Counted from the first letter of the stretch, positions 7,255 to 55,422 are shown. The stretch is 64,000 nt of DNA from an uncultured Candidatus Saccharibacteria bacterium (GCA_964630375.1 CAZVRT010000002.1:41706-105705), one strand, 5' to 3'. The notes: a model not told the origin generated them from the letters alone. Numbers and translations: made by a program.

Positions 7255-7364
7255 AGATGTCAGATATATGTCCTCCTTGATCATACGATCTCCTTTCTAT
7301 GCCTGCCATGCAGGCTGTTTCAAACTGATTCTGACATATATAAATACATTGTCAATATTATTTA

Positions 7365-7633: not shown

Positions 7634-7743
7634 TTTGTAAATATACACCTTCCCTGTTTTTTGTCAACAGTTCCATTTTTATCACTTTTTAATATTTTAT
7701 TTAAATCAATTTAATACTATTTTTTGTAATCTTATAAAACTTT

Positions 7744-8115: not shown

Positions 8116-8117
8116 AT

Positions 8118-8146
8118 AAAAAGACCTCTTTGTAGAGGTCTTTTTA
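8118..8146. terminator. Bidirectional rho-independent terminator
   Basis: aaaa-AGACCTCT-ttgt-AGAGGTCT-tttt, placed between the 3' ends of convergent genes (a plus-strand gene ending at 8115 and dus ending at 8225). Confidence 0.55.
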
Positions 8147-8224
8147 TAATATATACGGAGCTAAAGCTCCTCGGCCGGTTATCAAAACCTATAATAAATA
8201 ATTGTATTAAATCATTTTGAAAAG

Positions 8225-9217: not shown

Positions 9218-9225
9218 CTGCCTAT

Positions 9226-10236
9226 TTATTCATATCGCACATTCTTTTGCAAGAACGACAAAATATTTCTTGTATCTCTCTCAATATCTTGGGTGTTCAA
9301 AATAATAATCGCAATTTTTCTTTCGCCAAAATCCGCATCACCATTCAACTTCACACTAAACAACCCAACATTCGTTTTTCCGGCTGCACTAATATATCCA
9401 TTCTTTCCTCCCAAATAATTTTTATCACCTTTAAATCTAGAATTCGAATGCCAAACTTTTCTTCCAAGACGATAATTTTTCTCTTGTGTAATTTCAAAAA
9501 TAAAACTTCTGTATTTATAAATATACTGACTTAGTGAAAATAAATCCTTCACACTTGAAACATTTTTTGAAGAAAGTCCACTCGGATCTTCGAAAGAAGT
9601 TTTTTCTAAATTTAAAATTTTTGCCCGTTCGTTCATATCAAGCAAAAAAGTATATCGATTATCAAATTCAGAAATAACTTCAGCCGCGTCGTTTGAAGAT
9701 TCCAACAACAGAGGATATAAAAGCTCTTCTATTGTATATTTTTCTCCTCTGTTTAAATTTCCCTGCTCGCCCGTTGTTGAAACAGCACGACTAGAAACAA
9801 CAGTTTCTTTTTCTAAACCAATCTTTTCATCAGCAATCACCGCAGTCATAAGTTTCGTCACAGAAGCAATTGGCACCGAAGCATCTTCTCCTCTGCTAAA
9901 AATAACCTGATTAGTTTCTATATCTCCAACCAAAAAATACTTTGCGGAAATATTCGGAAACTTTGCATCTTCTTCCACGTAATAATTTCTAAAATTTGTT
10001 GTTGGGACTTCTCCATTTCTATCAGAATAAGGTCCACCCAAACCTCCTCTAACAATAATATCTCTACCAAAACTTATTCGTAAATTATTTTTATATTTTT
10101 CAGAAGCAAAAACATAAACACCTTGAGAAACTTTCACAAAACCAACTCCTGCAAAATACAAAATCACTAAACAAAGTAACCCTAAAAGAGAGATAACAAC
10201 CTTATTATTTTTTAACAACAATTTCGCCGTTTTCAT
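9226..10236 (-). CDS. D-alanyl-D-alanine carboxypeptidase (peptidase S11 / PBP5-like), membrane anchored
   Basis: N-terminal TM segment, an SxxK motif 'SVTKLMTA' and an SxN motif 'ESSNDAA'. Confidence 0.65.
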   Translation of the reverse strand: MKTAKLLLKNNKVVISLLGLLCLVILYFAGVGFVKVSQGVYVFASEKYKNNLRISFGRDIIVRGGLGGPYSDRNGEVPTTNFRNYYVEEDAKFPNISAKYFLVGDIETNQVIFSRGEDASVPIASVTKLMTAVIADEKIGLEKETVVSSRAVSTTGEQGNLNRGEKYTIEELLYPLLLESSNDAAEVISEFDNRYTFLLDMNERAKILNLEKTSFEDPSGLSSKNVSSVKDLFSLSQYIYKYRSFIFEITQEKNYRLGRKVWHSNSRFKGDKNYLGGKNGYISAAGKTNVGLFSVKLNGDADFGERKIAIIILNTQDIERDTRNILSFLQKNVRYE

Positions 10237-16973: not shown

Positions 16974-19145
16974 ATGTCAAAACTAGTAATCGTAGAGTCA
17001 CCTGCAAAGGCAAAAACAATTGAAAAATATCTTTCAGAAATCGGTGACTACCGAGTGGTTGCTTCTGTTGGACATATTCGTGACCTGCCAAAAAGTCAGA
17101 AAAAAGCTATTGATATTGAAAAAGGTTTCAAACCAAATTACGAAGTTGTAAAAGGAAAAGAAAAAGTTATCAGCGAAATAAAATCTCTGGCAAAAAAATC
17201 TGATGAAGTTCTACTTGCAACCGACCCCGACCGCGAAGGAGAAGCTATTGCTTGGCACTTAAAAGAAGCGGCTGATTTGAAAAAATCAAAGAGAATTGTC
17301 TTCAACGAAATTACAAAAGAAGCGATTCAAGAAGCCATCAAACATCCGCGTGCAATCGACGATGACTTAAAACAAGCTCAAGAAGCTCGACGAGTTTTGG
17401 ATCGACTTTTCGGTTATGGCCTTTCTGGTTTGATTTGGAAAAAAGTTCGCTACGGACTTTCTGCTGGACGAGTTCAATCTCCTGCTCTTCGTATATTAAT
17501 GGAAAGAGAAAGAGAAATCCGTGCTTTCAAGCCTGAAACTTTTTGGGTTATTACAGCCGATTTAAAATCTAAAAATGTTTCTTTCACTACGACTTGCAGC
17601 GAAGAACCTAGAGACAAAAAAGAAGTTGATCGTATCTTGGAAGAAGGAAAAAATGGAGATTGGATTGTAAAAGACATCAAAGAAACTCAAGCCAAAAGAT
17701 CTCCGTATCCTCCTTTTATTACATCAACACTGCAGCAAGCAGCTTCAACACGACTTGGTTATTCCCCTTCTCGAACAATGCAACTTGCACAAAAACTATA
17801 CGAAGCAGGACACATCACATATATGCGAACAGACTCAACAAATCTTTCAAAACAAGCTTTGGGACAAATTGCTGGGGTTGTAGAAAAAAAATACGGAAAA
17901 GATTATTTGTCATTTCGCACATACGGAAAAAAATCTAAAGGTGCACAAGAAGCTCACGAAGCAATTCGTCCGTCAAACATAAACAAAGAAAATGTCGGGA
18001 CAACAGAGGAACAAAAAAGATTATACAACTTGATTTGGGCAAGAGCAGTTTCAAGTCAAATGATTGATGCAAAACTTTTACGAACAAAAATAATTGCGAA
18101 TATAAAAGAAGATTCTATTCCAGATTTTAGTATCAACGGACAAAGAACTCTTGAGCTTGGTTGGATGAAAGCTGACCCTGTTGCAAGAAGCGAAGAAACT
18201 GAAGTGCCTGCAGTTAAGATTGGTGAAGATTTGGATTTGATTGACATCAAAGATGAAGAAAAACAAACTCAACCACCATCAAGGTATACAGAAGCAGGTT
18301 TGATTAAGGAATTGGAAAAAAGAGGTATCGGCCGACCTTCTACTTACGCCTCAATTATTAAAACTCTAAATGACCGAGGTTATGTAGAAAAAGAAGGACG
18401 AACTTTAATTCCGACAGACACAGGCGATGTTGTTTCTAGTTTTATCGAACAACACTTCGACAAATATATTTCTGATGACTTCACTGCCGAAATGGAAGAC
18501 GAACTAGATGAAATCGCTTCAGGAAAAGCAACTTATGAAAAAACTCTAAAAGATTTTTATGGACCTTTTATAAAAGATATTGATAAAAAAGAAGACATAG
18601 AAAAAATTACAAATCTTGGAGATGCTGATCCAAAATTCAAATGTCCTGTTTGTGGCAAAAAAATGCAAATCAAACTTGGTAAAGCAGGAAAGTTTTTGTC
18701 TTGTATAGATTTCCCGGACTGTACTGGAGCTCTTACAATCGATGGCGAAGAATGGAAAGAAAATGCACCAATCGGTGAAGATCCTGAAACAGGTTTGCCG
18801 GTAAAAATTCTTACAGGTCGTTTCGGTCCATACATTCAAATTGGAGAAAAAACAAAAGAAAATCCAAAACCTCGACGAGCAAGCATTCCAAAAGAAATTG
18901 ATCCAAGTACAGTTACAATGGAGCAAGCTTTGAAGTTTTTATCACTTCCTCGAACTTTAGGACAACACCCAGACACGGGAAAAGATATTATCGCCAACAA
19001 TGGACGGTTTGGTCCTTATGTAATGCACGACGGAGATTTTCGTTCTCTAAAAACTGACAATGTTTATGAAGTTGGGTTGAGTCGGGCGTTGGAGATTTTA
19101 GCTGAAGAAAAGAAAACTAGAAGAGGAAGAGGCAAACAAAAATAA
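16974..19145 (+). CDS. topA: DNA topoisomerase I
   Basis: TOPRIM 'LVIVESPAKAKTIEKYL', 'ATDPDREGEAIAWH', an active-site-tyrosine region 'GHITYMRTDS', and C-terminal zinc-ribbon repeats 'CPVCGKKM...CIDFPDCTG'. Confidence 0.9.
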   Translation: MSKLVIVESPAKAKTIEKYLSEIGDYRVVASVGHIRDLPKSQKKAIDIEKGFKPNYEVVKGKEKVISEIKSLAKKSDEVLLATDPDREGEAIAWHLKEAADLKKSKRIVFNEITKEAIQEAIKHPRAIDDDLKQAQEARRVLDRLFGYGLSGLIWKKVRYGLSAGRVQSPALRILMEREREIRAFKPETFWVITADLKSKNVSFTTTCSEEPRDKKEVDRILEEGKNGDWIVKDIKETQAKRSPYPPFITSTLQQAASTRLGYSPSRTMQLAQKLYEAGHITYMRTDSTNLSKQALGQIAGVVEKKYGKDYLSFRTYGKKSKGAQEAHEAIRPSNINKENVGTTEEQKRLYNLIWARAVSSQMIDAKLLRTKIIANIKEDSIPDFSINGQRTLELGWMKADPVARSEETEVPAVKIGEDLDLIDIKDEEKQTQPPSRYTEAGLIKELEKRGIGRPSTYASIIKTLNDRGYVEKEGRTLIPTDTGDVVSSFIEQHFDKYISDDFTAEMEDELDEIASGKATYEKTLKDFYGPFIKDIDKKEDIEKITNLGDADPKFKCPVCGKKMQIKLGKAGKFLSCIDFPDCTGALTIDGEEWKENAPIGEDPETGLPVKILTGRFGPYIQIGEKTKENPKPRRASIPKEIDPSTVTMEQALKFLSLPRTLGQHPDTGKDIIANNGRFGPYVMHDGDFRSLKTDNVYEVGLSRALEILAEEKKTRRGRGKQK

Positions 19146-19146
19146 T

Positions 19147-19215
19147 CGTGCAAATTTTTGCCAGTCCTCGGCTCACGCCTGCGGAAGCAAAAATTTGCAC
19201 GATTATTTTTGTTTC
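19147..19215. terminator. Long bidirectional terminator hairpin: an 18-bp stem with a 25-nt loop, flanked by an A-run on the left and a T-run on the right
   Basis: aatcgtgcaaatttttgc...gcaaaaatttgcacgatt, then atttttgttt. It serves topA on the plus strand and could also end a minus-strand transcript. Confidence 0.5.
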
Positions 19216-19244
19216 CCACTATCTCTAGTTTTCATAAATAAAAA

Positions 19245-19527
19245 GTGGGTTGAGCGACCTGCGAAATCGCTCAACCCTGTTTCAACATAGTGTATTATTT
19301 CCCTGCTCAGCGACAGTCGCTCGGGGCGATTGCGCTGGGTGGTTAAGTCGGCATACACTTTTTGTAACGGCACACAAACCAGAATACTGGACGGATATTC
19401 TATGCTTGGTTGAAACTAACCGCGAGTAGACGCGTCTTTGTGACTGACCCTAGCAAAACCACACATTACGTCAGCCAAGGTGTCGACTGCGCAACAGACT
19501 AAGACAAAGAACGGGCCACTGATTTTA
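19245..19527 (-). ncRNA. Candidate structured ncRNA of about 280 nt, identity unresolved. Some RNase-P-like strings are present but the call is not secure.
   Basis: GC-enriched block (about 50%). A minus-strand promoter TTGCGA-17-TATAAAAT lies at 19549-19522. The minus-strand 3' end is a GGGTTGAGCGA/TCGCTCAACCC hairpin followed by ACUUUUUAUUUAU. Plus-strand reading gives 'ACAGUCGC', 'UAAGUCGGC', 'GUAACGGC' and 'GACUGCGCAACAGA', which resemble RNase P P2/P4 strings. Confidence 0.35.
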
Positions 19528-19560
19528 TACAACAAAACAAAAAATATCGCAATAGCCTTC

Positions 19561-20523
19561 CTAAACTGTAAAATTGCTCAAAGAGAAAGTTTCCTCATCG
19601 TCCATTTCTGACGGCGAATTATCAACTTCCATTTCTGCAACATCTTCCTGAACTTGTTTCTGTATTTCCTCAGCTTTTTCCCGACTTGCATTTATCAAAG
19701 CCAAAATATTTCTTAGATCTTCTTCATTAAAATATTCAATACGAATTCTTCCACCAACTTCTTTTGGTTCAATGTGAACACGAGTCCCAAGAACATCACT
19801 CGCCTTTTGTTCCATTTCAAAAATTTCTGGTGCAAAAAACTTTTCCTTCTTTCGTACTTTTTCTTGTGCAATCCCTCTAGCAATTTTTTCCGCATCACGC
19901 ACAGTCATTTTTTTCAAGACAATTTCTCTAAACAAAACATTTTGTTCTTCAGGTCGATCAGAAAGCATTAAAAGTGGTCGTGTGTGTCCTTCAGAAATTT
20001 TCCCATCACCAAGTGCATTTAAAATTTCTTCCGGCAAAGCAAGTAAACGAATTGTGTTTGAAACATACTCTCTACTTCTTCCAACTTTCTTTGCAATCTC
20101 AACATGTTTCAAATTAAATTCTTCAGCCAATCTCTGGAAAGATCTTGCACGATCAACAGGATTCAGATCTTCTCTTTGCAAGTTTTCGATAATTGCCAAT
20201 TCAAGTTTCACTCGATCGTCATCTTCTTTTGCACGAATCAAAGCTGGTACTTCTCGCAACCCAGCAAGCTTAGAAGCCCGCAGTCTTCTTTCTCCTGAAA
20301 TCAACTCATACTCAACACCAATTCCTCCATCATCTTTCTGATACTCTTTTCGTGTCACAACCAATGGCTGCAAAATTCCGTACATTCGAATAGAATCTGA
20401 AAGGTCTTTTAATTTTGATTCATCAAATTCGTGTCTTGGTTGAAAAGGATTTGGCTTGATTTTATCAACTTCTATAAAGAAAACGGCGTTATTATGAAAT
20501 GCTGAACGTGATATATCTGTCAT
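19561..20523 (-). CDS. parB: Chromosome partitioning protein ParB/Spo0J
   Basis: 'ISGERRLRASKLAG', 'IIENLQREDLNPVDRARSFQRL' and an HTH 'EIAKKVGRSREYVSNTIRLL'. Confidence 0.85.
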   Translation of the reverse strand: MTDISRSAFHNNAVFFIEVDKIKPNPFQPRHEFDESKLKDLSDSIRMYGILQPLVVTRKEYQKDDGGIGVEYELISGERRLRASKLAGLREVPALIRAKEDDDRVKLELAIIENLQREDLNPVDRARSFQRLAEEFNLKHVEIAKKVGRSREYVSNTIRLLALPEEILNALGDGKISEGHTRPLLMLSDRPEEQNVLFREIVLKKMTVRDAEKIARGIAQEKVRKKEKFFAPEIFEMEQKASDVLGTRVHIEPKEVGGRIRIEYFNEEDLRNILALINASREKAEEIQKQVQEDVAEMEVDNSPSEMDDEETFSLSNFTV

Positions 20524-27734: not shown

Positions 27735-30065
27735 CTATCGAACCTTCCAACCAGTTTGACTGTTTAAAACTTGAGAAACTTTTTCCATTATCGAGTTAAT
27801 TTGTTCATCAGTTAATGTTTTTTCGAAAGATTGAAAAACTATTCTAAACGCATATGAAACGTTTCCATCTTTCTCAAACTTATCGAATAGGCGATTTTGT
27901 ACAACCAAATCTCCGGCATTTTCTTTTATTAAATTCCAAACATCTTCTTCTGAAACATTTTGTGGAACCCAAACAGCAATATCGCGCACAATAAAAGGAT
28001 AAATTGAAAACGCTTTATATTGTTTTGGAGAAAATTCTTTTTGAATTTTATAAAAACTATTTTGATCAACTTCCGGCAACTTTGAAATAATTTTATCTAA
28101 GTTTATTTCTGCAACTTTTTCTTTTATTTCAAAATCTGCATCACTTAGACTAAATTTATTTTTCAATTCCTCAATTGTTTTTTTCAAAGATTTTGCATTT
28201 GAGTTCGCAATTCCAAGTGTCAAAAATTCTTCTTCACCCTTAAACACTTTTCCAATTTCAAAAATTCGTACTTCACCCAAACCAAGTAAATCAATATTTC
28301 TTGTATTCAATTCTAAACTTTCTTTCAATCCGTCAGATAAATTATTTCTTAAAAAGCCTTTATCTTTTGTTAGAGGATTTGAAATCTGCACATCACCTTT
28401 TGATTGCAACGTATATGTCATCACATCCGTATACCCAAGACTCAAAAGAAAATCAGCGAACTCAAGAGAATAATATTGTGTCTTATCAAGCAACCGTGCA
28501 GTTTCTCTTTTTACCTCGTTGTTTCCAATATTTGAATAACCATAAACGCGTGCGATTTCTTCAATCAAATCTTCTTTGATTCGCACATCAATTCTTTCAT
28601 CCGGCACAGTCACCACAAATCTTTCTTCATCAGGATTTACAACTCTTCCATATCCAACAATATTTTGAAACCTTGTAGAATTTTTTATATCCTCGATAGT
28701 AACACCAGCATTGTTTTCTTCTGTACAATGAATCACTTCGTCATTCCCAAGATAAATTCCACAATGATCTACTCCTTCTGGAACTTGTATTCCTTTCATA
28801 AACTCGATACTTTCAGTATCTATTTTTCTATTTAAAATTCCTGTATTTGAAAAAATTAAATCTCCAGGCAACAAATTGTCTTTACCAATTTTAGAACTAA
28901 ATACATATTGATCTATCGACATTCGCGGAATTGAAGCTCCAGCTTCTTTGTACAAATAAGAAGTAAAAGATGAACAATCAAACGCTTCCGGTGCATCAAA
29001 CAAAACACTCGCTCCATATTTATAAGGTCGTCCAACAAAACTTTTTGCCATCTCAACGATATTTTCCAACGGCTTTACTTTATTATGTTCAAAATGCAAT
29101 CTATCCAAAATATTTGAAATTTCAGATTCAGAAAGATTTGTTCCAAGATATTTATTCACCTCGTTCACAGATACACCAGTTTTATATTGCCCTGCTTTTC
29201 TTGGATAAACATCAATAATGCTTCCAACTTTTGTATTTTCGTCAGATGCATACTTCAAAAGCATTTCTGTTAGCCGATTCATTGCAATCTCCGCCCACAG
29301 AGGTGTGATATCTCTTTCAAATCTTTTTGAAGATTCAGTATCAATTTGCAAAGCTCGTCTAGTTTTTCTTATTGCAACTGCGTCAAAGTTTGCAGCCTCC
29401 AAAAGCAAATTTACAGTTCCTTCTGCAACTTCAGCTTTTTTCCCTCCTTTAATACCTGCAATTGCTAAAACATCTTTTTCATCTGCAATCACCATTTCAT
29501 TTCCGGCAAATTTCACTTCTTTGTTATCCAAAGTTGTAAATTGAGTTTCGGCTTCAACGGTTCGCACCAAAATTTTCTTTCCACTCAATTTATCAGAATC
29601 AAAAGCATGAAGTGGTTGCCCTAAATCAAACATCACCACATTTGTACAATCAACAATATTATTTATAGATTTTTGCCCAATCGTTTCCAATTTCTTTTTC
29701 AATTCTTCAGGAGACGGACCAAGCTTTACTCCACGAATTTCTCGAGAGATATATCGCTTACAATTTTTGTCGTTCACTTCAACAGAAAATTCTGTTTCAA
29801 AATCAACTCGACTAATTTCATTTGGATAACCCTTCAAAGAAATTCCTGTCAAAACATTTACTTCTTTCGCAATTCCATAATGAGCAAAAGAATCATGTGC
29901 TCTGTTTGGTTGCACATCTATTTCATAAAGAAAATCATCTCCAACTTCTTTTACAGCTTCAACTTCATAAGCACCAACAGTCAAAGTGTGAGCAAGAGAT
30001 TTTGCATCAGGAAGTTTTCCATCTAAATGTTCTTGTATCCAATTGTACGAAACTCGCATACTCAT
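27735..30065 (-). CDS. pheT: Phenylalanyl-tRNA synthetase beta subunit. It lacks the N-terminal tRNA-binding domain and carries an inserted NlpC/P60 peptidase domain.
   Basis: B1-like 'SYNWIQEHL...VQPNRAHDSFAHYGIAKE', a B3/B4 editing region, B5 'VTVPDERIDVRIKEDLIEEIARVYGYSNI' and a C-terminal core. Residues about 335-475 are 'GRPYKYGASVLFDAPEAFDCSSFTSYLYKEAGASIPRMSIDQ...PGDLIFS...VDHCGIYLGNDEVIHC', the NlpC/P60 signature. Confidence 0.85.
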   Translation of the reverse strand: MSMRVSYNWIQEHLDGKLPDAKSLAHTLTVGAYEVEAVKEVGDDFLYEIDVQPNRAHDSFAHYGIAKEVNVLTGISLKGYPNEISRVDFETEFSVEVNDKNCKRYISREIRGVKLGPSPEELKKKLETIGQKSINNIVDCTNVVMFDLGQPLHAFDSDKLSGKKILVRTVEAETQFTTLDNKEVKFAGNEMVIADEKDVLAIAGIKGGKKAEVAEGTVNLLLEAANFDAVAIRKTRRALQIDTESSKRFERDITPLWAEIAMNRLTEMLLKYASDENTKVGSIIDVYPRKAGQYKTGVSVNEVNKYLGTNLSESEISNILDRLHFEHNKVKPLENIVEMAKSFVGRPYKYGASVLFDAPEAFDCSSFTSYLYKEAGASIPRMSIDQYVFSSKIGKDNLLPGDLIFSNTGILNRKIDTESIEFMKGIQVPEGVDHCGIYLGNDEVIHCTEENNAGVTIEDIKNSTRFQNIVGYGRVVNPDEERFVVTVPDERIDVRIKEDLIEEIARVYGYSNIGNNEVKRETARLLDKTQYYSLEFADFLLSLGYTDVMTYTLQSKGDVQISNPLTKDKGFLRNNLSDGLKESLELNTRNIDLLGLGEVRIFEIGKVFKGEEEFLTLGIANSNAKSLKKTIEELKNKFSLSDADFEIKEKVAEINLDKIISKLPEVDQNSFYKIQKEFSPKQYKAFSIYPFIVRDIAVWVPQNVSEEDVWNLIKENAGDLVVQNRLFDKFEKDGNVSYAFRIVFQSFEKTLTDEQINSIMEKVSQVLNSQTGWKVR

Positions 30066-46243: not shown

Positions 46244-47959
46244 TTATTCTACCAAATATAGAAAAAGATTCTCGCTACTTTTTCCCAAAAGTTTTATTCC
46301 TTCGCATTGAGTTTCAGGTATATAGAAGTATTGAATTTTTAATTTCTTTGCTGTTTGTAATTTTTCTTGGCAATTCATACTCAAAAAAATATTATAATTC
46401 ATCAAATTTACAGTGATTGTCGAAGGTTTAGTCACAATGGGAATATTTTTTGTTGCAACAGCAATTGTTAGGCCTTTCCAAGGAGGAGAAATAAATCTGG
46501 AATTTTTTATATCTTTAAATAAAGCCAAATCATCATCTGTTAAATATTTGCTCACAGGTGGAGCCGGATCAAAATTAAAAGTTTTGAAATATATCCAGCC
46601 TTCTCTTTTTGTAAATGAAAAACTTAATACAAAAAATAAAACTAACATCAAGATTAATAGGGCATTTTTTATTTGAAAGTTTTTCAGAAAATTATATTTT
46701 TGCTTTAAAAATTCAACTAAATCTTTTAATCCAAAAGCAGAAGCAATTAGAAGCAAGATTCCTGAAATAGCGACAGTTCGATGATAATCCATAACAATAG
46801 TTTCAATACCTAAAGAATACAGAAGCCATAAAATTAAAGTTATAAAGATAGGAACAGAAATAAATTTGTATTCTTTTCTGATTTTCCATAAACCATAAAG
46901 TGCAAAAGGCGTCATAAAAAATGGTAAGACTCGCCAAATTATAAATAATGGTGGTTCACCCAAAGCACTGTTTAATGGTCTAAATAAAAATTTGAAAATA
47001 AAATTAAAGCTATTTTTGATTGTGCTTAAATCGTTCAAAGAGCTTAATATTCCTGCAAATATAATTCCCAGCCCCAAAAATATTATGTAATTAATTTTCA
47101 GTTTTTTATTTATAGAAGTAAAAAATAAACTAGGAACCGCTAAAATACTTATCGGCGGATAAAAAGAAATTGCCAGTAAATTAAGTAGAATTCCAGTTTT
47201 CGCATAATTTTTCCTTATCGCAATAAAATAACTAATCAAAAATAATAATCCAATATTCCAAGGCAAAAGATTCCATAAAATCGGCAAGTTAGAAGAATTA
47301 GGCAAATAAGAAATCATAAAGACCACAAAAACAGAAATTCCAACTGAGATTTTCAATTCTCTCAAAAGAATATAAACGAATGACAAAAGCAGAATTGAAA
47401 AAATAATCGATAAAACCGGATAGAAACTTAATAAATCCAAATCAAACAATAAATCAATTTCAGAAATAAAAGATTGAAATACAAAAAGAAAATTCACAAG
47501 TTTTACGCCGTTAAAAGGATTGATCAAAGGTAGCCTTCCTGTTTCTATGATACTTTCAGAAACCGCAACTGTTATCCACTCATCAGAAAAAGAAGGAGCC
47601 GTTGATCGAAAATTTTCAACTTCCGAAACTCCAGTGTGACTAATAATTTTTCCTGAGTAGTTAAAATGAACAAAATAAAATTGCAAAGCAACAATAAATA
47701 ATGCAATCAAAATTGCCCAAGGAATTTTTTTACTAAACTTGAAATTAATTAATCGGAAATTTAATAAAATAGAAACCAAGGCAACTATAATATGCAAAAT
47801 TAAAAGCAAATTAAAATTAAAAATTCCAAAAATTTGCAACAAAATAGCAATGGAAGCATGTCCCGCAATCATCGCAGATGAAACCAAAACAAAACCAAAA
47901 ATTCGGTCTTTAAATCTTAAAATCCAGATGAGTGGCACCAAAATTAATAAAACAAGCAT
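46244..47959 (-). CDS. Large polytopic membrane protein, a possible GT-C-type glycosyltransferase or polymerase
   Basis: 571 aa with at least 12 hydrophobic helices. It sits at the edge of the glycan cluster. The family is not identifiable from sequence alone. Confidence 0.35.
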   Translation of the reverse strand: MLVLLILVPLIWILRFKDRIFGFVLVSSAMIAGHASIAILLQIFGIFNFNLLLILHIIVALVSILLNFRLINFKFSKKIPWAILIALFIVALQFYFVHFNYSGKIISHTGVSEVENFRSTAPSFSDEWITVAVSESIIETGRLPLINPFNGVKLVNFLFVFQSFISEIDLLFDLDLLSFYPVLSIIFSILLLSFVYILLRELKISVGISVFVVFMISYLPNSSNLPILWNLLPWNIGLLFLISYFIAIRKNYAKTGILLNLLAISFYPPISILAVPSLFFTSINKKLKINYIIFLGLGIIFAGILSSLNDLSTIKNSFNFIFKFLFRPLNSALGEPPLFIIWRVLPFFMTPFALYGLWKIRKEYKFISVPIFITLILWLLYSLGIETIVMDYHRTVAISGILLLIASAFGLKDLVEFLKQKYNFLKNFQIKNALLILMLVLFFVLSFSFTKREGWIYFKTFNFDPAPPVSKYLTDDDLALFKDIKNSRFISPPWKGLTIAVATKNIPIVTKPSTITVNLMNYNIFLSMNCQEKLQTAKKLKIQYFYIPETQCEGIKLLGKSSENLFLYLVE

Positions 47960-47986: not shown

Positions 47987-49144
47987 ATGGAAAATAAAGA
48001 CCAGCCAAAATTGAGTGTAATTCTCCCCTGTTTGAACGAAGAAGCGTCCATAGAAAAATGTGCTGAAAGCATACAGCAAGAATTAAAAAATAAAGTTGAT
48101 AGTTTTCAAATCGTACTCGTTGACAACAATTCGACAGATAAAACAAAATTTCTTTTGGAAAAATTGAAGCGAAAATATTCTAATATCAAAATAATATTCG
48201 AGCCTGTTTTAGGATATGGAAGCGCTTGCAGAGCAGGTTTTGAAAATTCAGACGGAAAATATCTTTTATTAATGGATTCTGATCAAACTTATCCTGTAAA
48301 TAAAATTATGCAGTTTGTTGAAGAATTGGAAAAAGGAAATGAGTTTGTAATTGGAAACAGATTTACAGGAGAAATTGAAAAAGGCGCAATGCCGAAACTT
48401 CATCAGTTCATCGGCAATCCAGTTTTATCTTTTATTTTAAGATTGTTTTTTAAAACTGAAATTCGAGATTCTCATTGTGGCATGAGAGCGATAAAAAAAT
48501 CTGAATATGAAAAATTACATTTTAGAACAATTGGAATGGAGTTTGCCAGCGAAATGGTTATGAAATCAATAAAAGCAAATTTAAAAATATCTGAAATCCC
48601 AATCAGCTATCACCCAAGAGTTGGAGAATCAAAATTAAAATCTTTCAAAGACGGCTGGAGACACCTTCGTTTTATGCTTCTTTATTCCCCGCTCTATTTA
48701 TTTCTGGCACCAGGAATGATTTTGTTTTTAATTGGGGCAATAACAATGACCGTTCTTTATTTCACAAAAATAAATCTAGCCGGAATTCAGCTTTTAGTTC
48801 ATCCAATATTCGTATCTTCTTTGTTAACAATTATTGGATACCAACTAATAATTTTTGCAGGTTTCGCCAAGATTTATGCAATTACACATTTAAGTGCAAG
48901 TAGTCCAAAATTAGAAAAAGCTTTCAAATTTCTTTCTATAAATAATGTCAGCTTGGTTGGATTGATTTTGCTAATAAGCGGATTCATTATTTATGTAGTA
49001 ATTTTAAATAAATGGATTGCGTCGAATTTTGGTTTCTTGGATGAAATTAAAAATGCAATTATCGGCTTAACTCTTATGGTTTTAGGAGTTCAAACAATTT
49101 CTTCAGCTTTTATGTTTAGTATTATTTCTATAAAAGAGAGTTAG
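47987..49144 (+). CDS. Family-2 glycosyltransferase with C-terminal TM helices (DPM1/GtrB-like polyprenyl-phosphate sugar transferase)
   Basis: 'LSVILPCLNEEASI', 'VLVDNNSTDKT', 'LLLMDSDQTYP' and C-terminal hydrophobic helices. Confidence 0.7.
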   Translation: MENKDQPKLSVILPCLNEEASIEKCAESIQQELKNKVDSFQIVLVDNNSTDKTKFLLEKLKRKYSNIKIIFEPVLGYGSACRAGFENSDGKYLLLMDSDQTYPVNKIMQFVEELEKGNEFVIGNRFTGEIEKGAMPKLHQFIGNPVLSFILRLFFKTEIRDSHCGMRAIKKSEYEKLHFRTIGMEFASEMVMKSIKANLKISEIPISYHPRVGESKLKSFKDGWRHLRFMLLYSPLYLFLAPGMILFLIGAITMTVLYFTKINLAGIQLLVHPIFVSSLLTIIGYQLIIFAGFAKIYAITHLSASSPKLEKAFKFLSINNVSLVGLILLISGFIIYVVILNKWIASNFGFLDEIKNAIIGLTLMVLGVQTISSAFMFSIISIKES

Positions 49145-51566
49145 ATTTAGAAAAAATATCATCTATTAAATCTTGTATTTTTGGCAATAAAACTTTACTG
49201 TCATATTTTTTTTGATTATGAATGGCTTTATTTCCCATTTCAATTCTTTTTTGTTTATCTAAAACCAAATTTTCTATTGCATCGGCAAAATCTTTTTCAT
49301 TAAATTCCTCAACAATTGTCCCAGCATCTTTTACAGCTGAATGAATTCCTCCTGCTTCTTTAAAAATTACTGCCGGTTTACCAAGAGACATTGATTCTAG
49401 TACAACCAAAGGAAACGGATCTTCTCTTGATGGAAGAGCAAAAATATCTGCTTGTTTCATGTACGGAAATGGATTTACTTTTTCTGAAATTAAAGTAAAA
49501 AATGGAGAATAAAAAGCAAAATCTGACATGAAGGGTTCTTTAAAAGGCTTGCTTCCAACCCAAATAAATTTTACAGGCAAGCCCTTTTCAACTAAACTCT
49601 TTGCTGTTCTCATAAAAATATCTGCACCTTTTCTATAAATAAACATCCCAACACTCATTACAATAATTTCATCTTCTTTCTTTTTTAATTCAGATAAAAT
49701 ATTGTATTCGGATATTTCATTGCTTTTTTGTATGTTCTTTTCAGAATCAACAAACGCATTTATTAAAACTACTTTATTCTGTTCACAATTTAAACTATTA
49801 ATTAAAATATTATAAACCGGCACAGAAACAGCAATAAAAATATCAGCAAAACTTTTAAAATCTTTTCTTTTTTGTCCTCTAAACATCATATTGATTGCAA
49901 TATCCAATTCATGGACATGAAAAATTGTTGGAATATTTAATTCTTTTGCAGCAATACAAAAAGGATGAGAACCAATAGAATTTGCATATACTACTTTCGG
50001 CTTAATCTTTTCAAGAATTTTTTTTGCCTGATCAACCGGCTCCAATTCACCATAAAGCTCATCAGGATACATAACAGTCCCAAATTCATCACTAAAATCT
50101 TGAGTCATAGAACCTCGTGCCAAAGACACCATAGCCACCTTATATTTTTCTTTTGAAGCTTTTGCCACATCAAAAATTATTCTAGGCGCTCCAGTTCTGG
50201 ATTCATCGTGAGTTATAAAAAGAACATCAATATTTGAAAAATTTTCTTTATTTCTCTTCCAAAACTCATCAGTATAGCTTGGCTTGTTTTTCTGAACTTT
50301 CTTTGCACTTTTAAAAAGTATTCCCGGAATTAATTCATTAAAAATTTTCTGATTAAAAGAAAGAATTTTTTCATATTGTTTTCGAATAAACGAACCTCTC
50401 GGAAAAAATAAATTTAAAAACATGTCCCAACCTTTTACAATTTTCCAAGTAAAACTTTGTTCGATATTTGTTAAGGCAATATTTAAATTCAAAATTTCAT
50501 TATCTTTAGAGTCAATTAAACTTTTTTGATATTGAGAATGTAAAAAATTTTTATGAACCAATTCTTTTTGGTACTCAACTTCTTTTTTCAGAATTTCAAT
50601 ATCGCTTTTATAATCATCTTTTATTTTTTGAATGCCTTTCAACAAAGCTGTGCTTTTATTTACCAAAACATCTTTCTCTTCAAGTTTTGCTTCATATGAA
50701 CCTATGATTTTTTGTAAGCTATCTTGTGATTGATTCGATAGAATTTCAAGCCTTTCCTCATATAAGCTGATAATTTCTTTTTGCTCGGCATCTTTTTGCT
50801 CCATCAAACCACTCAATAAGTCGGTTAAAAAATCTTCAGAAGAAACTTTGTTGTGACGCAAATTTATATCTAAAAAAGATTTGATAATATTTTCAGAATT
50901 AAATGTTTTTTCCAAACCATTATCAGCAAAAAAATCTGTTATATTTTTTATTGCACTTTCATAATTTTCAAAGAAATTATCATACCAAAAATCCAAATGC
51001 GGAGTGTTATATAATACAGAATCAATATTTTGATAATAATATCGATAAGTATTTATCGCTTCTAAAGTGCTTATTTTATTTCTTTTATAAAGAGACAAAA
51101 CAACATCTTGAACATTCCTACGCATCACAACAAACTTAGTATTGATATTTAATTCATTAAAAATTTCAATATAAACTTTTAACAAAATAGAAATCCTAGG
51201 GTCTTTTATCAAAAATAAATTCGTGTCTGCAAAATCTCTTTCTATTATCACTTTAATCTGTTTTTTGAATTCTCCTATTTTATAATCTTCCTGCCAATTT
51301 TTTGGAAGTTTAGAAAACAAACCATCTGAATCAATTCCAAAATAACTCAACAACTCTTTATTTAATTCAACAATGTCTTTATGCTCAAAAAACCCCTTTG
51401 GATTATCTGTATGAGACTCTATTAATTTTTTACTTAATTCTACACCCAAAATTCCTAAAACTCCGGACATAGTTGATGTGCCAGAACGGTGCATTCCTAA
51501 CACTAAAATACATGTCTTGGAATCTTTGGGTAACATAAAAAGAATACTACCCTTTTTTGTATTCAT
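49128..51566 (-). CDS. Tri-partite protein: N-terminal sulfotransferase domain, central coiled coil, C-terminal GT4 glycosyltransferase
   Basis: A 5'-PSB-like 'LGMHRSGTSTM', a 3'-PB-like 'VMRRNVQDVVLSLYK', about 150 aa of heptad-rich sequence, and GT4 'EPFPLVVLESMSLGKPAVIF'. Confidence 0.6.
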   Translation of the reverse strand: MNTKKGSILFMLPKDSKTCILVLGMHRSGTSTMSGVLGILGVELSKKLIESHTDNPKGFFEHKDIVELNKELLSYFGIDSDGLFSKLPKNWQEDYKIGEFKKQIKVIIERDFADTNLFLIKDPRISILLKVYIEIFNELNINTKFVVMRRNVQDVVLSLYKRNKISTLEAINTYRYYYQNIDSVLYNTPHLDFWYDNFFENYESAIKNITDFFADNGLEKTFNSENIIKSFLDINLRHNKVSSEDFLTDLLSGLMEQKDAEQKEIISLYEERLEILSNQSQDSLQKIIGSYEAKLEEKDVLVNKSTALLKGIQKIKDDYKSDIEILKKEVEYQKELVHKNFLHSQYQKSLIDSKDNEILNLNIALTNIEQSFTWKIVKGWDMFLNLFFPRGSFIRKQYEKILSFNQKIFNELIPGILFKSAKKVQKNKPSYTDEFWKRNKENFSNIDVLFITHDESRTGAPRIIFDVAKASKEKYKVAMVSLARGSMTQDFSDEFGTVMYPDELYGELEPVDQAKKILEKIKPKVVYANSIGSHPFCIAAKELNIPTIFHVHELDIAINMMFRGQKRKDFKSFADIFIAVSVPVYNILINSLNCEQNKVVLINAFVDSEKNIQKSNEISEYNILSELKKKEDEIIVMSVGMFIYRKGADIFMRTAKSLVEKGLPVKFIWVGSKPFKEPFMSDFAFYSPFFTLISEKVNPFPYMKQADIFALPSREDPFPLVVLESMSLGKPAVIFKEAGGIHSAVKDAGTIVEEFNEKDFADAIENLVLDKQKRIEMGNKAIHNQKKYDSKVLLPKIQDLIDDIFSKSNSLL

Positions 51567-52266
51567 TCACAACTTCTTGGGCGTTTCCAAACATTTTCAA
51601 CTCCCCTTTTTCGAGCCAAATAATTTTTGAACATTGTTTTAAAAGAAAATTATAATTATGACTGGCAATCAAAACCATTTTAGAGGAATCAATATATTCT
51701 TGTATTTTTTTTGAAACTTTATCTTTAAAATATTCATCCAAGCCGGCACCGATTGCTTCATCTAAAATTAAAATATCCGGAGATTTTGGCAGAGTAAAAA
51801 TTGTAATTGAAAAAACCGCCCTTGTCATCATCCCATTTGAAAATTTATACAACGGAACATCAACAAAATCTTTCAATTCACTAAACAGCAAAATATCATC
51901 TACTCTTTTTTTTATTTCTTTTAGAGACAAACAATTTAAAATACCGATTATAAAAATGTTATCTCTCATTGAAAGATTTTTATTTACTCCGCTATAAAAA
52001 CCACTTAAGTAAACAACATTCCCCTTAACAAATACATTTCCTTCAGTCGGCTTTAATATTCCTGCAATGATCTTTAAAAGAGTAGATTTTCCAGACCCAT
52101 TATTCCCTACCACCCCAAAAATTTTATCTTCTTGTAAATTTAAAGAAATATTTTTTAAAGCAAACAAATCTTGTTTTTCTTCATGTAAATTTGTAACAAA
52201 ATTTAAAAAGCCTTTTTTAGCTTTATTGATGATAAATTTTTTTGAAACAGATTCAACGTTAATCAT
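51547..52266 (-). CDS. ABC transporter ATP-binding protein (Wzt/TagH-like, no C-terminal carbohydrate-binding extension)
   Basis: Walker A 'GVVGNNGSGKSTLL', signature 'FSNGMMTR' and Walker B 'ILILDEA'. Confidence 0.8.
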   Translation of the reverse strand: MINVESVSKKFIINKAKKGFLNFVTNLHEEKQDLFALKNISLNLQEDKIFGVVGNNGSGKSTLLKIIAGILKPTEGNVFVKGNVVYLSGFYSGVNKNLSMRDNIFIIGILNCLSLKEIKKRVDDILLFSELKDFVDVPLYKFSNGMMTRAVFSITIFTLPKSPDILILDEAIGAGLDEYFKDKVSKKIQEYIDSSKMVLIASHNYNFLLKQCSKIIWLEKGELKMFGNAQEVVNEYKKG

Positions 52267-52267
52267 G

Positions 52268-53008
52268 TTATTTAATTCTCTCAGAGATTACATCTTTTCT
52301 GAAATCAAAAATTATTTTACCAACCAAAAAAGTCCCCAAAGAAATTACAAGACAAATTAAAATCAAATCAATAGAAACCGATTTAAAATCATATACCAAA
52401 TATCTTCCCAACTTTAAAAAATAATAAATTGGATTTAATTTAACCAACCAATTTTCATCTGAAACTGAATAATATATCGGTAATATAAACCATAAAATCT
52501 GACAAAAATAATTCCAAACGTACGTAATATCAAAAAACCTTGTTGATAAAACACATAAAATCTTTCCTAATCCAAAAATAAATAAGCTATATAAAGGCAG
52601 AATCAAAAAATAAAATATTCCATGATAATAACCAAAAAACATTAATATTAATAAAACTAAAATTGTTTCGAAAATATGGTGCCACAAAGAAACAAAAAAA
52701 TTTGATAGAACAAAAATTTCAGGATTTAATTTTTTTGAATTCAGCAATTCATAGTGTTTAGTAATCGATCCAGATACTTGCATGGTGCTTGAAATAAAAA
52801 AATGAACCATAATCACACCAATAAATAGATACGGAATAAAATTTTCTATATGCAAACCAATTAGATTACGCTTCACATAATAAAGCACTAAAAACATAAA
52901 CAAAGGCTGTAAAAAATACCAAACAAAACCCAAATATGTATTATGATTTCTAGCTTTTAGTTCAAAAAAAGAGAGTGTTAAACTTTTTTTAAAAATGTCT
53001 ACAGTCAT
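52268..53008 (-). CDS. ABC-2 type transporter permease (Wzm/TagG-like)
   Basis: Six predicted TM helices, ABC-2 topology, adjacent to and co-oriented with the ATPase. Confidence 0.7.
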   Translation of the reverse strand: MTVDIFKKSLTLSFFELKARNHNTYLGFVWYFLQPLFMFLVLYYVKRNLIGLHIENFIPYLFIGVIMVHFFISSTMQVSGSITKHYELLNSKKLNPEIFVLSNFFVSLWHHIFETILVLLILMFFGYYHGIFYFLILPLYSLFIFGLGKILCVLSTRFFDITYVWNYFCQILWFILPIYYSVSDENWLVKLNPIYYFLKLGRYLVYDFKSVSIDLILICLVISLGTFLVGKIIFDFRKDVISERIK

Positions 53009-53709
53009 TAGAAAATTTGCTCCATTAGCTCTTTTAAATTTTCTTCAGGACTTCCTTGAAAAATAAAAGAACCAGAAACCAATCTTTCAGCACCAGCTTC
53101 AACTAAAAATTTTGCAGTATCTAATCCAACTCCTCCGTCTACTGCTACAGGAATTCCTGGAAACTTACTTTTAAAATCTTTGATGTTTTTTAAAATATCA
53201 TCAACAAATTCCTGCTGTTGGAAACCAACTTTTTCAATTCCCATAAACTGAACACAATCAATTTTGTGCAAAATATTTTCAATTCTCGAATAATCTTCAT
53301 TTGGCAAAATAGCAATTCCAACTTCAACTCCGAGACTTTTTATTTCATCTATTAGACTTTCAAAATCATTATCCAAAGTTTTTAAATGTAAAATAATTCT
53401 TGCAGCACCAGCTTTTACCCATTTCAAAGATTCATCTTTTGGATTTAAAACCATCAAATCCAGTTCGTAATTTAAATTTTCCCAAAAAGGCATTCCTTCA
53501 TCTCCATTTAAAATATCAGAAAAATTTTCATCAGAAGAATATGGCCAAGAAACTGAAGGTGTATATCTTCCATCCATCACATCAACTTGTACCCATTTCA
53601 CTTTATTGCGAACCAAACCTGCTTTTGAAACCAAGTCATCATAATCAGTTGGCATAATAGCCGGAATAATTTCAATTTTAGTTGTGGTATCCATCATCAA
53701 TTTTTTCAA
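53008..53709 (-). CDS. rpe: Ribulose-phosphate 3-epimerase family protein
   Basis: 'IIPAIMPTDYDDL...VQVDVMDGRYTPS' and 'VAVDGGV'. Confidence 0.65.
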   Translation of the reverse strand: MKKLMMDTTTKIEIIPAIMPTDYDDLVSKAGLVRNKVKWVQVDVMDGRYTPSVSWPYSSDENFSDILNGDEGMPFWENLNYELDLMVLNPKDESLKWVKAGAARIILHLKTLDNDFESLIDEIKSLGVEVGIAILPNEDYSRIENILHKIDCVQFMGIEKVGFQQQEFVDDILKNIKDFKSKFPGIPVAVDGGVGLDTAKFLVEAGAERLVSGSFIFQGSPEENLKELMEQIF

Positions 53710-54184
53710 TTCTTCTTATATGTCTTTCTTCTCCAGAAAATTCTGTTTCTAAAAATAATTGAACTGCTTCAATCGATTCTCTTATACTCAAAAATCTAGC
53801 ACCTAGAGAAATTATATTCGCATCATTATGTTGTCGTGCTGTAACAATTTCATCAGGAACTTCTCTTCCATCAGCAGGATGGTATTGTCCATTAAAAACA
53901 ATCGCTCGAATTCCAGGAAATCTGTTGGCAACTATCGCTTCCCCTTGACCAGAACCTCCGATAACAATTCCCATTTCATCTGGATTTATTGCAACAGAAT
54001 TTGCGACCGGAGCAATAAAATCTGGATAATCATCCTCAGCTTCGTATTCATAAGCTCCATAATCAACAACCTCATAACCTTCGCTTTCCAACCATTCTTT
54101 AATAGCTTCTTTATGCTCAAAACCAGCGTGATCCGCCCCTATGTGTATCACTCGGTTATCTTTCATTGTATCTGGATTAGTCAT
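53678..54184 (-). CDS. rpiB: Ribose-5-phosphate isomerase B. The start is probably 'MTNPDTMKDNRVIHIG', and the ORF-track extension to 54337 is unlikely.
   Basis: 'IHIGADHAGFEHKEAIKEWL' and 'GIVIGGSGQGEAIVANRFPGIRA'. Confidence 0.75.
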   Translation of the reverse strand: MTNPDTMKDNRVIHIGADHAGFEHKEAIKEWLESEGYEVVDYGAYEYEAEDDYPDFIAPVANSVAINPDEMGIVIGGSGQGEAIVANRFPGIRAIVFNGQYHPADGREVPDEIVTARQHNDANIISLGARFLSIRESIEAVQLFLETEFSGEERHIRRIEKIDDGYHN

Positions 54185-54267
54185 TATCTCAATTCTATCA
54201 CGAATTTTAATCAAAAAATAATCCCTGAAATTTTGAGAAAATAACAAATTGTTTATAATAAAAAATA

Positions 54268-55422
54268 ATGATAGATAAAAAAAACATCCACATACTTGGA
54301 CTAGATACCCACATTCCAGATTCTGCATTCTTAACAACAGAGGAACTCGACAGAAAAGTTGGATCTAATAATGGCAACTTGGTTTATCATCATGCTATAT
54401 CTCAGATATTGGATCTGAAACCATTCGGAATTCCTTGGCATGCATTTTCAGAAGAAAAATATCCTGACATAAAAGTTTTAATACTTCCTCTCGCAAATCA
54501 ACTTGGCAAACACATAGACTTAAGCGAACTTATAGATATATTTTCCAGAATAAAAATTCCAATAGTTTCAGTTGGACTTGGATACCAATGCCAAAATAAT
54601 GACTTAGATATCACAGAAGTACCAGAAGGTACTTGGAAATGGTTCGATAAACTTATCAACCATGCGCCAAATAACAATCCGAATATTTCTCTTCGTGGAA
54701 ATAAAACTTATAATTTTATCTCAAAAACAGGCAAACAAAATCATTGCATTGTAACAGGTTGTCCTTCAAACTTTATCAGCCCAGAAATAAATTTAGGAAA
54801 ACTAATTTCGAAGAAAATAATTCCAGACAACCCTAGATTTGCTATAGCCGCAGGAAATCCTCTGTTTTTAAAATTTATAAAAATAGAAAGACAATTAATT
54901 GAATTATTAAACTCATCAAATGGTATATACATTATTCAAAGCCCACCCCCTTTAATCAAGTTATCCAGAGAAGGAATTGATGCGCTTCCGGTAAAAGATA
55001 AAATACTTATAAGAACATGGTTAGGTTGGTTTGTAAGTGATGCTGAAATATCAAAATGGTTCAGAGAAAAATCTCATGTGTTTTATAGCGTTCCAGAATG
55101 GATGGAAACATTAAAACGATTTGATATTGTAGTTGGAATGAGAATACACGGTGTATTACTTGGCATACAAACCGGAATACCATCTTTGTGCATATGTGTA
55201 GATTCGAGAACATTGGAATTATGCCAGATAATGAAAATTCCACACATAGATGCAAATGATTATTGGAAAGGCATTACAAAAGAAGAGATCATTACAATCC
55301 TTAAAAATTGGGACTGGCAAGAATACGATAGGACCAGAAAACATTTAGCTAGAATTTTAATGGACTTTTTTCATAAAAATGAGATTCCGACAGCTGATTA
55401 TTTCAAAAAATTATGTAATTAA
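54268..55422 (+). CDS. Polysaccharide pyruvyl-transferase-like protein (CsaB/WcaK family)
   Basis: An N-terminal 'GSNNGNLVYHHA' like GxxNxGD, and a C-terminal 'VGMRIHGVLLGIQTGIPSLCICVDSRTLEL' matching the R.H..I.a...G.P...i.Y..K pattern. Confidence 0.45.
   Translation: MIDKKNIHILGLDTHIPDSAFLTTEELDRKVGSNNGNLVYHHAISQILDLKPFGIPWHAFSEEKYPDIKVLILPLANQLGKHIDLSELIDIFSRIKIPIVSVGLGYQCQNNDLDITEVPEGTWKWFDKLINHAPNNNPNISLRGNKTYNFISKTGKQNHCIVTGCPSNFISPEINLGKLISKKIIPDNPRFAIAAGNPLFLKFIKIERQLIELLNSSNGIYIIQSPPPLIKLSREGIDALPVKDKILIRTWLGWFVSDAEISKWFREKSHVFYSVPEWMETLKRFDIVVGMRIHGVLLGIQTGIPSLCICVDSRTLELCQIMKIPHIDANDYWKGITKEEIITILKNWDWQEYDRTRKHLARILMDFFHKNEIPTADYFKKLCN

Follow-up and report, generated by a model that had tools for sequence, protein, structure and literature searches.

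A predicted sulfotransferase-glycosyltransferase fusion encoded next to an ABC exporter in a Candidatus Saccharibacteria bacterium, and its possible role in glycan chain termination

We report on a gene of an uncultured Candidatus Saccharibacteria bacterium, a member of the Candidate Phyla Radiation (CPR), found in a 64,000-nucleotide stretch of DNA (GCA_964630375.1, CAZVRT010000002.1:41706-105705) that is called the window below. The gene encodes a sulfotransferase-like domain, a long helical spacer and a glycosyltransferase (GT) of family GT4 in a single protein. This fusion very probably joins a glycan sulfotransferase using 3′-phosphoadenosine 5′-phosphosulfate (PAPS) to a GT4 enzyme, in a pathway whose glycan is exported by an ATP-binding cassette (ABC) transporter. 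An earlier note, made from the sequence alone, had suggested in addition that the protein is a chain terminator equipped with a molecular ruler, a model which, argued by analogy, has in our view an even chance of being right. Two alignments served to analyse the fusion: A1, with 26 full-length homologs, and A2, with 29 more diverse relatives. The parts of the gene are the following:

49128-51566, minus strand: whole fusion (sulfotransferase, helical spacer and GT4), 812 aa, a single uninterrupted open reading frame (ORF) starting with ATG.
50853-51515, minus strand: N-terminal sulfotransferase-fold domain, residues 18-238.
51474-51497, minus strand: 5′-phosphosulfate-binding loop GMHRSGTS, residues 24-31, from its conservation in A1 and A2.
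51093-51122, minus strand: 3′-phosphate-binding motif RRNVQDVVLS, residues 149-158, from the profile alignment to SULT1A1; R150 and S158 are invariant.
50403-50846, minus strand: proline-free helical linker, residues 241-388, a candidate coiled-coil spacer (AlphaFold2 helices, periodicity).
50232-50471, minus strand: post-linker segment, residues 366-445 (NIEQSFTWK..., aromatic and basic), a candidate membrane-proximal or docking region.
49131-50231, minus strand: GT4 glycosyltransferase (GT-B fold, retaining), residues 446-812, with a D716-x7-E724 motif (Pfam, Foldseek, predicted local distance difference test (pLDDT) above 90).

The fusion is real, and not an artefact of assembly or frameshift, nor two joined ORFs, because an identical ORF is present on an independently assembled contig (L001, Logan SRR16797977), and because 26 homolog proteins with 32-54% identity, aligned over 96-98% of the query length, all have the same three-part layout. 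The earlier note had described one 812-aa protein of three parts, while envisaging that resequencing might split the gene into two ORFs: the description stands, and the independent contig carries the gene whole. Translation may start at Met11 (51536), giving a protein of 802 aa, since the homologs begin at that position and an AAGGG sequence is found 13 nt upstream from this ATG. A scan of the fusion protein for transmembrane (TM) segments gave no TM helix.

The two PAPS-binding motifs quoted in the earlier note, RSGTS (residues 27-31) and RRNVQDVVLS (residues 149-158), are both present, and their key positions are among those invariant in A1 and A2, namely M25, H26, R27, G29, T30, S31, N55, G58, E61, the KDPR stretch at 121-124, R150 and S158. 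G24 is likewise invariant in A1, with a conservation of at least 90% in A2, and position 28 is either S or T. The invariant residues E61 (adjoined by H62) and K121 are candidates for the catalytic base. When the whole protein was scanned with Pfam and NCBIfam models, only the GT4 was detected, and nothing over the N-terminal region. With residues 1-243 alone, Sulfotransfer_3 reached 18.9 bits (E=0.002, cutoff 27 bits) and Sulfotransfer_1 15.9 bits (cutoff 22 bits). The Pfam scans proposed in the earlier note therefore gave GT4 models above threshold, but left both sulfotransferase models below it for this domain; PF13469 is on record for many of the homologs.

Because of these sub-threshold scores, structure and profile methods were applied to the N-terminal domain (N-domain). 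The model built from the diverse alignment had a pLDDT of 91, and its top 12 Foldseek matches were all sulfotransferases. Searching all PDB sequences with a profile of the N-domain family, the 14 best matches were all SULTs (E from 0.0026 to 0.18), and the segment vvRnplEVAaS of the profile was aligned onto the 3′-phosphate-binding segment VARNAKDVAVS of SULT1A1. In both fold searches of the N-domain, sulfotransferases ranked above kinases. Fold, motifs and profile thus support a PAPS-type sulfotransferase and not a P-loop kinase, the outcome that the earlier note had named as fatal to its proposal. Within the sulfotransferase fold superfamily, the N-domain is closest to the TPST/Stf branch.

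The genomic company of this domain was then considered over its whole family. The N-domain alone matched 15,663 clusters (at 50% identity) with E≤0.001, and 8,112 with E≤1e-10, and a single peptide pattern retrieved relatives from many phyla, in at least 537 species genomes. The N-domain lies within about the first 50 residues of the protein in 118 of 120 close matches. GT4, GT2, RgpF or methyltransferase modules come after it in proteins of up to about 1,400 aa, and the standalone N-domain proteins (450-600 aa) have about 200-350 further residues after the domain. Public annotation calls the Pseudomonas and Paceibacterota homologs 'glycosyltransferase' only.

We annotated 80 genome loci of the family, using phmmer and hidden Markov model (HMM) seeds. 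About 28 of these 80 loci have Wzm and Wzt genes no more than 10 kb away from the N-domain gene, and in 10 of the 28 or so, wzt ended at most 100 bp upstream from the N-domain gene. To detect Wzt_C, the long Wzt proteins were scanned with Pfam, since an iterated HMM of this module had strayed into the nucleotide-binding domain and was discarded: among the long Wzt proteins encoded next to N-domain genes, 9 of 10 matched Wzt_C, 8 of them above the Pfam cutoff. Thirteen of the 80 loci have a gene with an adenosine 5′-phosphosulfate (APS) kinase domain no more than 10 kb from the N-domain gene, a linkage with a binomial P below 1e-6 even if a background of 3% is assumed. For ten of these 13 loci the assignment was examined with Pfam, which confirmed every one, CysN-CysC fusions included. 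The APS kinase gene directly adjoins the N-domain gene in L038, L050, L051, L060, L073 and L080, and N-domain, Wzt_C and APS kinase occur together in L063, L073 and L085. Besides a 1353-aa N-domain protein, an O-antigen-type locus of Pseudomonas atacamensis (L007) encodes Wzm, a Wzt that carries Wzt_C, an APS kinase, a GT1/RgpF protein and a WbpL-like protein. As a side observation, an APS-kinase domain oddly fused to a methyltransferase domain dependent on S-adenosylmethionine (SAM) (391 aa; 6284-7459, minus strand, in L072) is encoded near an N-domain gene in an Aminobacter metagenome-assembled genome (MAG).

The most direct link of the exact architecture with a short Wzt and with PAPS synthesis is a metagenome contig (L090) carrying a full-length ortholog of the fusion (34% identity). 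Its operon, at 2672-10361, reads wzm, wzt (261 aa), APS kinase (150 aa), fusion, Sulfotransfer_3, GT4 and GT2_TM_C. Since the family adjoins wzm/wzt, often with Wzt_C, and APS kinase genes, and given this operon, the prediction of PAPS-dependent glycan sulfation is well supported.

The C-terminal domain raised no difficulty. Pfam matched Glyco_transf_4 at residues 459-609 (5.1e-9, 36.8 bits) and Glycos_transf_1 at 626-782 (1.2e-22, 80.7 bits), both above threshold, and the AlphaFold2 model of the region had a pLDDT above 90. Foldseek matched it with HepE, PglA, BshA and MshA, at a target-normalised template modelling score of about 0.8. The GT4 assignment of the earlier note is thus borne out by Pfam and by fold, but the motif on which it relied had lost one D, and reads EDPFPLVVLESM (residues 715-726). 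Its E724 is invariant among the A1 homologs.

Between the two catalytic domains, the linker 241-388 runs over 148 residues without a proline. AlphaFold2 predicted long helices there, over residues 243-290, 302-387 and 393-426, with less confidence. A custom 28-residue heptad score did not discriminate (1.49 for the linker, versus 1.56 for the 99% null), and the heptad test retained was the Fourier power at period 3.5 compared to shuffled sequences. By this test, hydrophobic periodicity gave z=3.0 for residues 302-365, and z=5.3 in local 42-residue windows. The 'about 150 aa heptad-rich' segment announced in the earlier note is therefore a proline-free helical stretch of nearly that length, but its heptad signal is only moderate and local in this protein. 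In the 26 homologs, the best period was 3.50-3.58 in all cases, with a whole-linker z of up to 12 and a strong signal in most of them. These linkers contain no proline, 34-49% of their residues are charged or glutamine, and they differ in length (102-171 aa) between flanking segments that hold a constant length. In 20 homologs, 83-90 aa separate S371 from the GT4 motif SRTGAPR (T458); in the six most distant ones, the figure is 63-77 aa. This constant segment opens with an invariant NIE(R/Q)S..WK, where S371 and W374 are invariant; at residues 391-400 its hydrophobic moment exceeds the 95th percentile of the protein, and its net charge reaches +5. Segment 366-445 might therefore dock the protein to the membrane. 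In the wider family, where coil length was taken as the longest proline-free run (the first proline after the domain having failed as a measure), a heptad-periodic proline-free stretch followed the N-domain in 37 of 73 relatives, compared to 15 of 150 control ORFs.

The neighbouring genes of the window are as follows:

51547-52266, minus strand: Wzt-type ABC ATPase, 239 aa, nucleotide-binding domain only, no Wzt_C (ABC_tran, 3e-20).
52268-53008, minus strand: Wzm-type ABC-2 permease, 246 aa, about 6 TM segments (ABC2_membrane, 7e-12).
47987-49144, plus strand: GT2 with a C-terminal membrane domain (GT2-TM), of the GtrB/AglJ/polyprenyl-phosphate-hexose synthase type (Glycos_transf_2, 3e-29; GT2_TM_C).
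46244-47959, minus strand: 571-aa polytopic membrane protein, about 12-13 TM segments by TM scan, an orphan family with no Pfam match.
54268-55422, plus strand: polysaccharide pyruvyl-transferase-like protein (PS_pyruv_trans, 3e-18).
53678-54337, minus strand: rpiB ORF, 219 aa, TTG start (Pfam match from residue 64).

In the direction of transcription, the minus-strand order is rpiB-rpe-wzm-wzt-fusion, where wzm, wzt and the fusion overlap or abut. Beyond the fusion come the GT2-TM gene, convergent with it and overlapping its 3′ end, the gene for the 571-aa membrane protein, and a split transketolase gene (tkt). Against NCBIfam, the window Wzt scored 6e-50 with Wzt/RfbE and 1e-46 with TagH, both below the equivalog cutoffs, and GT2-TM matched AglJ (TIGR04182) at 3e-42, also below cutoff. 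The 571-aa protein, possibly GT-C-like or ligase-like, has only 17 homolog clusters in a collection of 5.8 billion proteins, two of them tagged DUF6541, and its synteny with the fusion holds throughout the CPR loci. The neighbour list of the earlier note was accurate for Wzm, Wzt, the GT2, the polytopic protein and the pyruvyl-transferase-like gene, but rpe and rpiB, like the split transketolase, probably belong to central metabolism. A dedicated role of rpe, rpiB and tkt in sugar-precursor supply was rejected as the default, as they adjoin GAPDH, FBA and PfkB genes in a conserved housekeeping synteny. The rpiB ORF is probably over-extended: its Pfam match begins at residue 64 and its orthologs are 168-176 aa long, so that its overlap with the pyruvyl-transferase-like gene is likely not real. 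The latter gene is absent from sister loci and is therefore considered a lineage-specific accessory, whose membership of the cluster is uncertain.

The rest of the window is bacterial and has the look of a small genome, encoding GyrB, TopA, a class-I release factor (RF-1/2), L25, S2, EF-Ts, GatB, T2SS-F, a type IV pilin and several aminoacyl-tRNA synthetases. An archaeal origin, hinted at by the AglJ-like match and by a homolog recorded as archaeal, was rejected in view of this gene content. One of the synthetases, the phenylalanyl-tRNA synthetase beta subunit (776 aa; 27735-30065, minus strand), has an NlpC/P60 domain (PF00877, 1.3e-16) at residues 345-470, inserted between B3_4 and B5, which is unusual for a housekeeping enzyme. 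A SET-domain protein (PF00856, 8e-15) is encoded at 2191-2739 and a PemK/MazF-type toxin (PF02452, 9e-11) at 3210-3746, both on the plus strand.

Synteny was compared across related genomes, as the earlier note had advised. The closest named homolog of the fusion is from a Candidatus Paceibacterota MAG. CPR relatives (L002/L003, L004, L088 and L089) keep the order rpiB-rpe-[wzm-wzt]-fusion-GT2_TM-membrane protein (about 590 aa)-tkt, and GT2-TM adjoins the fusion in L002-L004, L006 and L088-L090. Directly after the fusion, the CPR relatives carry a standalone Sulfotransfer_3 gene of 265-268 aa (12382-13185 in L002, 12402-13205 in L004, 12539-13345 in L088 and 12370-13167 in L089), which the window lacks, whereas it has the pyruvyl-transferase-like gene next to rpiB; the window lineage may have swapped sulfate for a pyruvate ketal as an anionic modification of its glycan. 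This sulfotransferase (267 aa) was considered as a paralog of the N-domain and rejected, the similarity being at the level of motifs only. Two observations on L088 were made in passing: a sulfatase gene (PF00884) is located about 3 kb upstream of the fusion, and a pair resembling a diversity-generating retroelement (bAvd and reverse transcriptase) lies downstream of it, beside a Calx-beta surface protein (coordinates 5388-6884 and 18498-20437).

An ortholog of 753 aa (37-39% identity) is encoded in an archaeal MAG (L006, GCA_018651605.1, 10001-16916), together with GT2, Wzm, Wzt, GT4 and GT2_TM_C proteins. The contig is archaeal and DPANN-like, since it encodes TFIIB, S8e, L7Ae and LSM. That an archaeon carries both the fusion and other genes of the module points to horizontal transfer across domains, between ultra-small symbionts. 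The order wzm-wzt-fusion is kept in the window, in L002/L003, in L090 and in the archaeal L006; in the wider family it is also seen in L007 and 10 further loci.

In the chain terminator and ruler model, the fusion would be a bifunctional enzyme, peripherally associated with the membrane, of an ABC-transporter-dependent surface-glycan pathway in a CPR bacterium. Its GT4, held near the membrane by the aromatic and basic segment 366-445, would extend a polyprenol-linked glycan on the cytoplasmic face. A helical spacer of some 130-150 residues, probably a coiled coil, would bear the PAPS-dependent sulfotransferase on its far end: if the linker, taken as roughly 125 residues, forms one extended coiled coil (1.48 Å per residue), the active sites would be roughly 18 nm apart. 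Once long enough to reach the sulfotransferase, the chain would be sulfated at its non-reducing end, which would block extension and set the length. Wzm/Wzt would then export the product without gating by cap recognition, as suggested by the absence of a carbohydrate-binding module (CBM) in the window Wzt. GT2-TM and the 571-aa protein could prime the glycan (by AglJ-like synthesis of dolichyl- or undecaprenyl-phosphate-hexose) and ligate it, or else add side branches outside the cytoplasm. In this scheme we infer the terminal position of the sulfate, the arrest of growth, the ruler function, the membrane docking and the donor sugar.

Several observations weigh against the scheme. The N-domain of this very protein stays below the Pfam gathering thresholds for sulfotransferases. 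Its heptad signal, moderate as said, is absent for residues 243-290 and falls to z=1.0 over the whole linker, and a break is predicted within the spacer at 291-301, which could shorten the distance between active sites. Within the 64-kb window, no gene was found for an APS kinase or an ATP sulfurylase, nor for an initiating phosphoglycosyltransferase, and the GT4 of the fusion is the only cytoplasmic GT domain of the cluster; CPR genomes are in general biosynthetically poor. Among the sister loci, L004, L088 and L089 have no recognizable wzm/wzt beside the fusion, judged by the absence of any ABC-family Pfam match; all that L088 shows at this place is an unannotated ORF of 241 aa. These loci encode a second, unrelated sulfotransferase, and sulfation need therefore not be terminal. 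Finally, the Wzt proteins of the window clade (239-271 aa) are all devoid of a CBM. In all proven terminated O-polysaccharide systems, a CBM is attached to Wzt (PMC11231755), so that the window Wzt differs on this point from every experimentally terminated system, whereas such a module is found in the loci of distant relatives. The earlier note was right on the short Wzt, of 239 aa and without a carbohydrate-binding C-terminus, but its reading of ungated export is not singled out: the CBM-less Wzt of the clade fits a non-terminating role equally well.

Since the same work ties termination to the CBM and the window clade has a short Wzt, the main rival is a decorating sulfotransferase, a reading that we consider possible, though on the unlikely side. 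Sulfate would then be added internally, giving a polyanionic polymer resembling teichoic acid, the helices would serve in oligomerisation or as a scaffold, and length would be set by coupling synthesis to export. Transporters without CBM, those of O1/O2 antigens such as K. pneumoniae O2a, do couple extension to export and have no terminator (PMC11231755). The extra sulfotransferase of the sister loci and the sulfatase of L088 suggest bulk sulfation, and more than half of the wider-family loci have no Wzm/Wzt within 10 kb, meaning that the N-domain is not restricted to capped systems. Yet an enzyme that must act all along the chain would hardly be expected to have so constant an N-terminal position (118/120), with a variable-length spacer after it, and the same domain is found beside Wzt_C-bearing transporters in many phyla. 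What marks a polymerase-terminator system in the published account is a coiled coil that bears the terminator distally (PMC11231755).

It is improbable, in our judgement, that the product is instead a short sulfated glycolipid or primer, in which the GT4 would provide a lipid carrier or a membrane lipid with a single sugar or a few, the sulfotransferase would sulfate the product and the ABC-2 transporter would flip it, the helices being there for dimerisation only. The single GT domain of the fusion, without another cytoplasmic GT in the cluster, the lack of a nearby initiating phosphoglycosyltransferase and the resemblance of GT2-TM to AglJ and dolichyl-phosphate-hexose synthases all fit such a product, but a conserved spacer of 100-170 aa between active sites would be purposeless with a short substrate, and related loci hold several polymerising GT modules and O-antigen-type genes. 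It is very improbable that the N-domain is not an active sulfotransferase but a P-loop kinase phosphorylating the chain end as the WbdD kinase does, or a non-catalytic nucleotide binder: the weak Pfam scores and the window's want of PAPS-synthesis genes would agree with it, but the loop is RSGTS and not a Walker A GxxxxGK[ST], the R...S motif specific for binding the 3′-phosphate of PAPS is invariant and aligns to SULT1A1, both fold searches preferred sulfotransferases, and APS-kinase genes co-localise with the family.

Going back to the terminator and ruler model, a broader proposal can be built on it, which we advance tentatively, with odds somewhat short of even. CPR bacteria and a DPANN-like archaeon, all ultra-small episymbionts, would share a horizontally exchanged and self-contained module (wzm/wzt, the sulfotransferase-coiled-coil-GT4 fusion and GT2-TM) that builds a sulfate-capped glycan of measured length without a cap-reading Wzt, and the same N-domain would be an unrecognised terminator in thousands of bacterial clusters, including Pseudomonas O-antigen-type loci with Wzt_C and APS kinase. 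If so, sulfate would join methyl, methyl-phosphate and Kdo as a terminating cap in ABC-transporter-dependent glycan assembly, and a large unannotated family (the 8,112 clusters above) would gain a function. CPR and DPANN organisms would have a negatively charged surface glycan of controlled length, which could matter for host attachment, and the question of PAPS supply would be raised for such small genomes. The CBM-less version would be a natural test of uncoupling capping from export gating. Candidate clusters for sulfated O-antigen or cell-wall glycans, several with Wzt_C and an in-cluster APS kinase, can be tested in cultivable Pseudomonas, Paenibacillus, Dyella and Nitrosospira, and L090 is a good minimal cluster for heterologous reconstitution.

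To our knowledge, sulfate has not been demonstrated experimentally as a chain terminator in any organism. The 2019 census of terminator chemistries by Mann, Kimber and Whitfield reportedly speaks of 'predicted new chemistries' in its abstract, and may already list sulfotransferase terminators. In the open-access literature, which did not cover that census itself, we found no paper with both sulfotransferase and WbdD, nor one associating a sulfotransferase with termination of the WbdD/WbbB type; likewise, none linked a sulfotransferase to a molecular ruler of bacterial polysaccharides, or cited the census together with a sulfotransferase. The nearest published hint is ORF19 of the ABC-dependent O-antigen cluster of Aeromonas salmonicida, a sulfotransferase-domain gene labelled 'Hyp' and located between wzt and wbbB (PMC4483657). 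It is comparable to the fusion by domain and gene position, but it is a standalone protein of 216 aa, and the published O-antigen structure contains no sulfate (PMC4483657).

Compared to known sulfotransferases, the N-domain has the same 5′-phosphosulfate-binding (xRSGT) and 3′-phosphate-binding (R-x7-S) motifs as TPST1/2, mycobacterial Stf1/Stf9 and the sulfotransferase domains of CurM/OLS. Identity is only 11-19%, the acceptors of these enzymes are different (protein tyrosine, small molecules), and none of them carries a coiled coil and a GT in the same chain. With known terminators the similarity is architectural only, and not one of sequence homology: no WbdD or WbbB chain was present among the PDB sequence matches of the fusion protein or of the family profile. 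WbdD (E. coli O9a/O8) and the K. pneumoniae O7 protein ORF6 have an N-terminal transferase of a small group, a coiled-coil ruler and a membrane-proximal C-terminal region, to which the N-domain, the helical spacer as a candidate ruler and the candidate docking region with the GT4 would correspond in the fusion. ORF6, whose layout is mirrored by the fusion, likewise carries C-terminal GT modules, and WbdD/ORF6 orthologs exist with and without GT modules, as in the N-domain family (PMC11231755). Their cap is methyl or methyl-phosphate, made from SAM and ATP, whereas for the fusion PAPS would supply a sulfate cap; WbdD works with a separate polymerase that it recruits, WbdA, whereas the fusion carries its own GT4; and their export is gated by the CBM of Wzt, which the window Wzt lacks.

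A further close parallel is with WbbB (K. pneumoniae O12 and Raoultella terrigena), to which the earlier note had already likened the protein. WbbB is also encoded with wzm/wzt, and also has an N-terminal chain modifier; its middle is a coiled coil, for which the helical spacer of the fusion is a candidate counterpart, and at its C-terminus are polymerising GT modules, two of them instead of the single GT4 of the fusion. Its terminator is a GT99 beta-Kdo transferase using CMP-Kdo, where the fusion has a PAPS-type sulfotransferase, and its partner Wzt bears a CBM. Its host is a diderm with lipopolysaccharide, whereas the window host is a CPR bacterium and, going by the group in general, probably lacks an O-antigen acceptor. 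The likeness holds all the same for the layout: a modifying enzyme, a helical spacer of variable length, a conserved aromatic and basic segment and a GT follow each other in a gene placed directly after wzm-wzt, and by this domain order the modifying domain sits, as in WbdD and WbbB, at the end of the candidate coil far from the GT and putative docking region.

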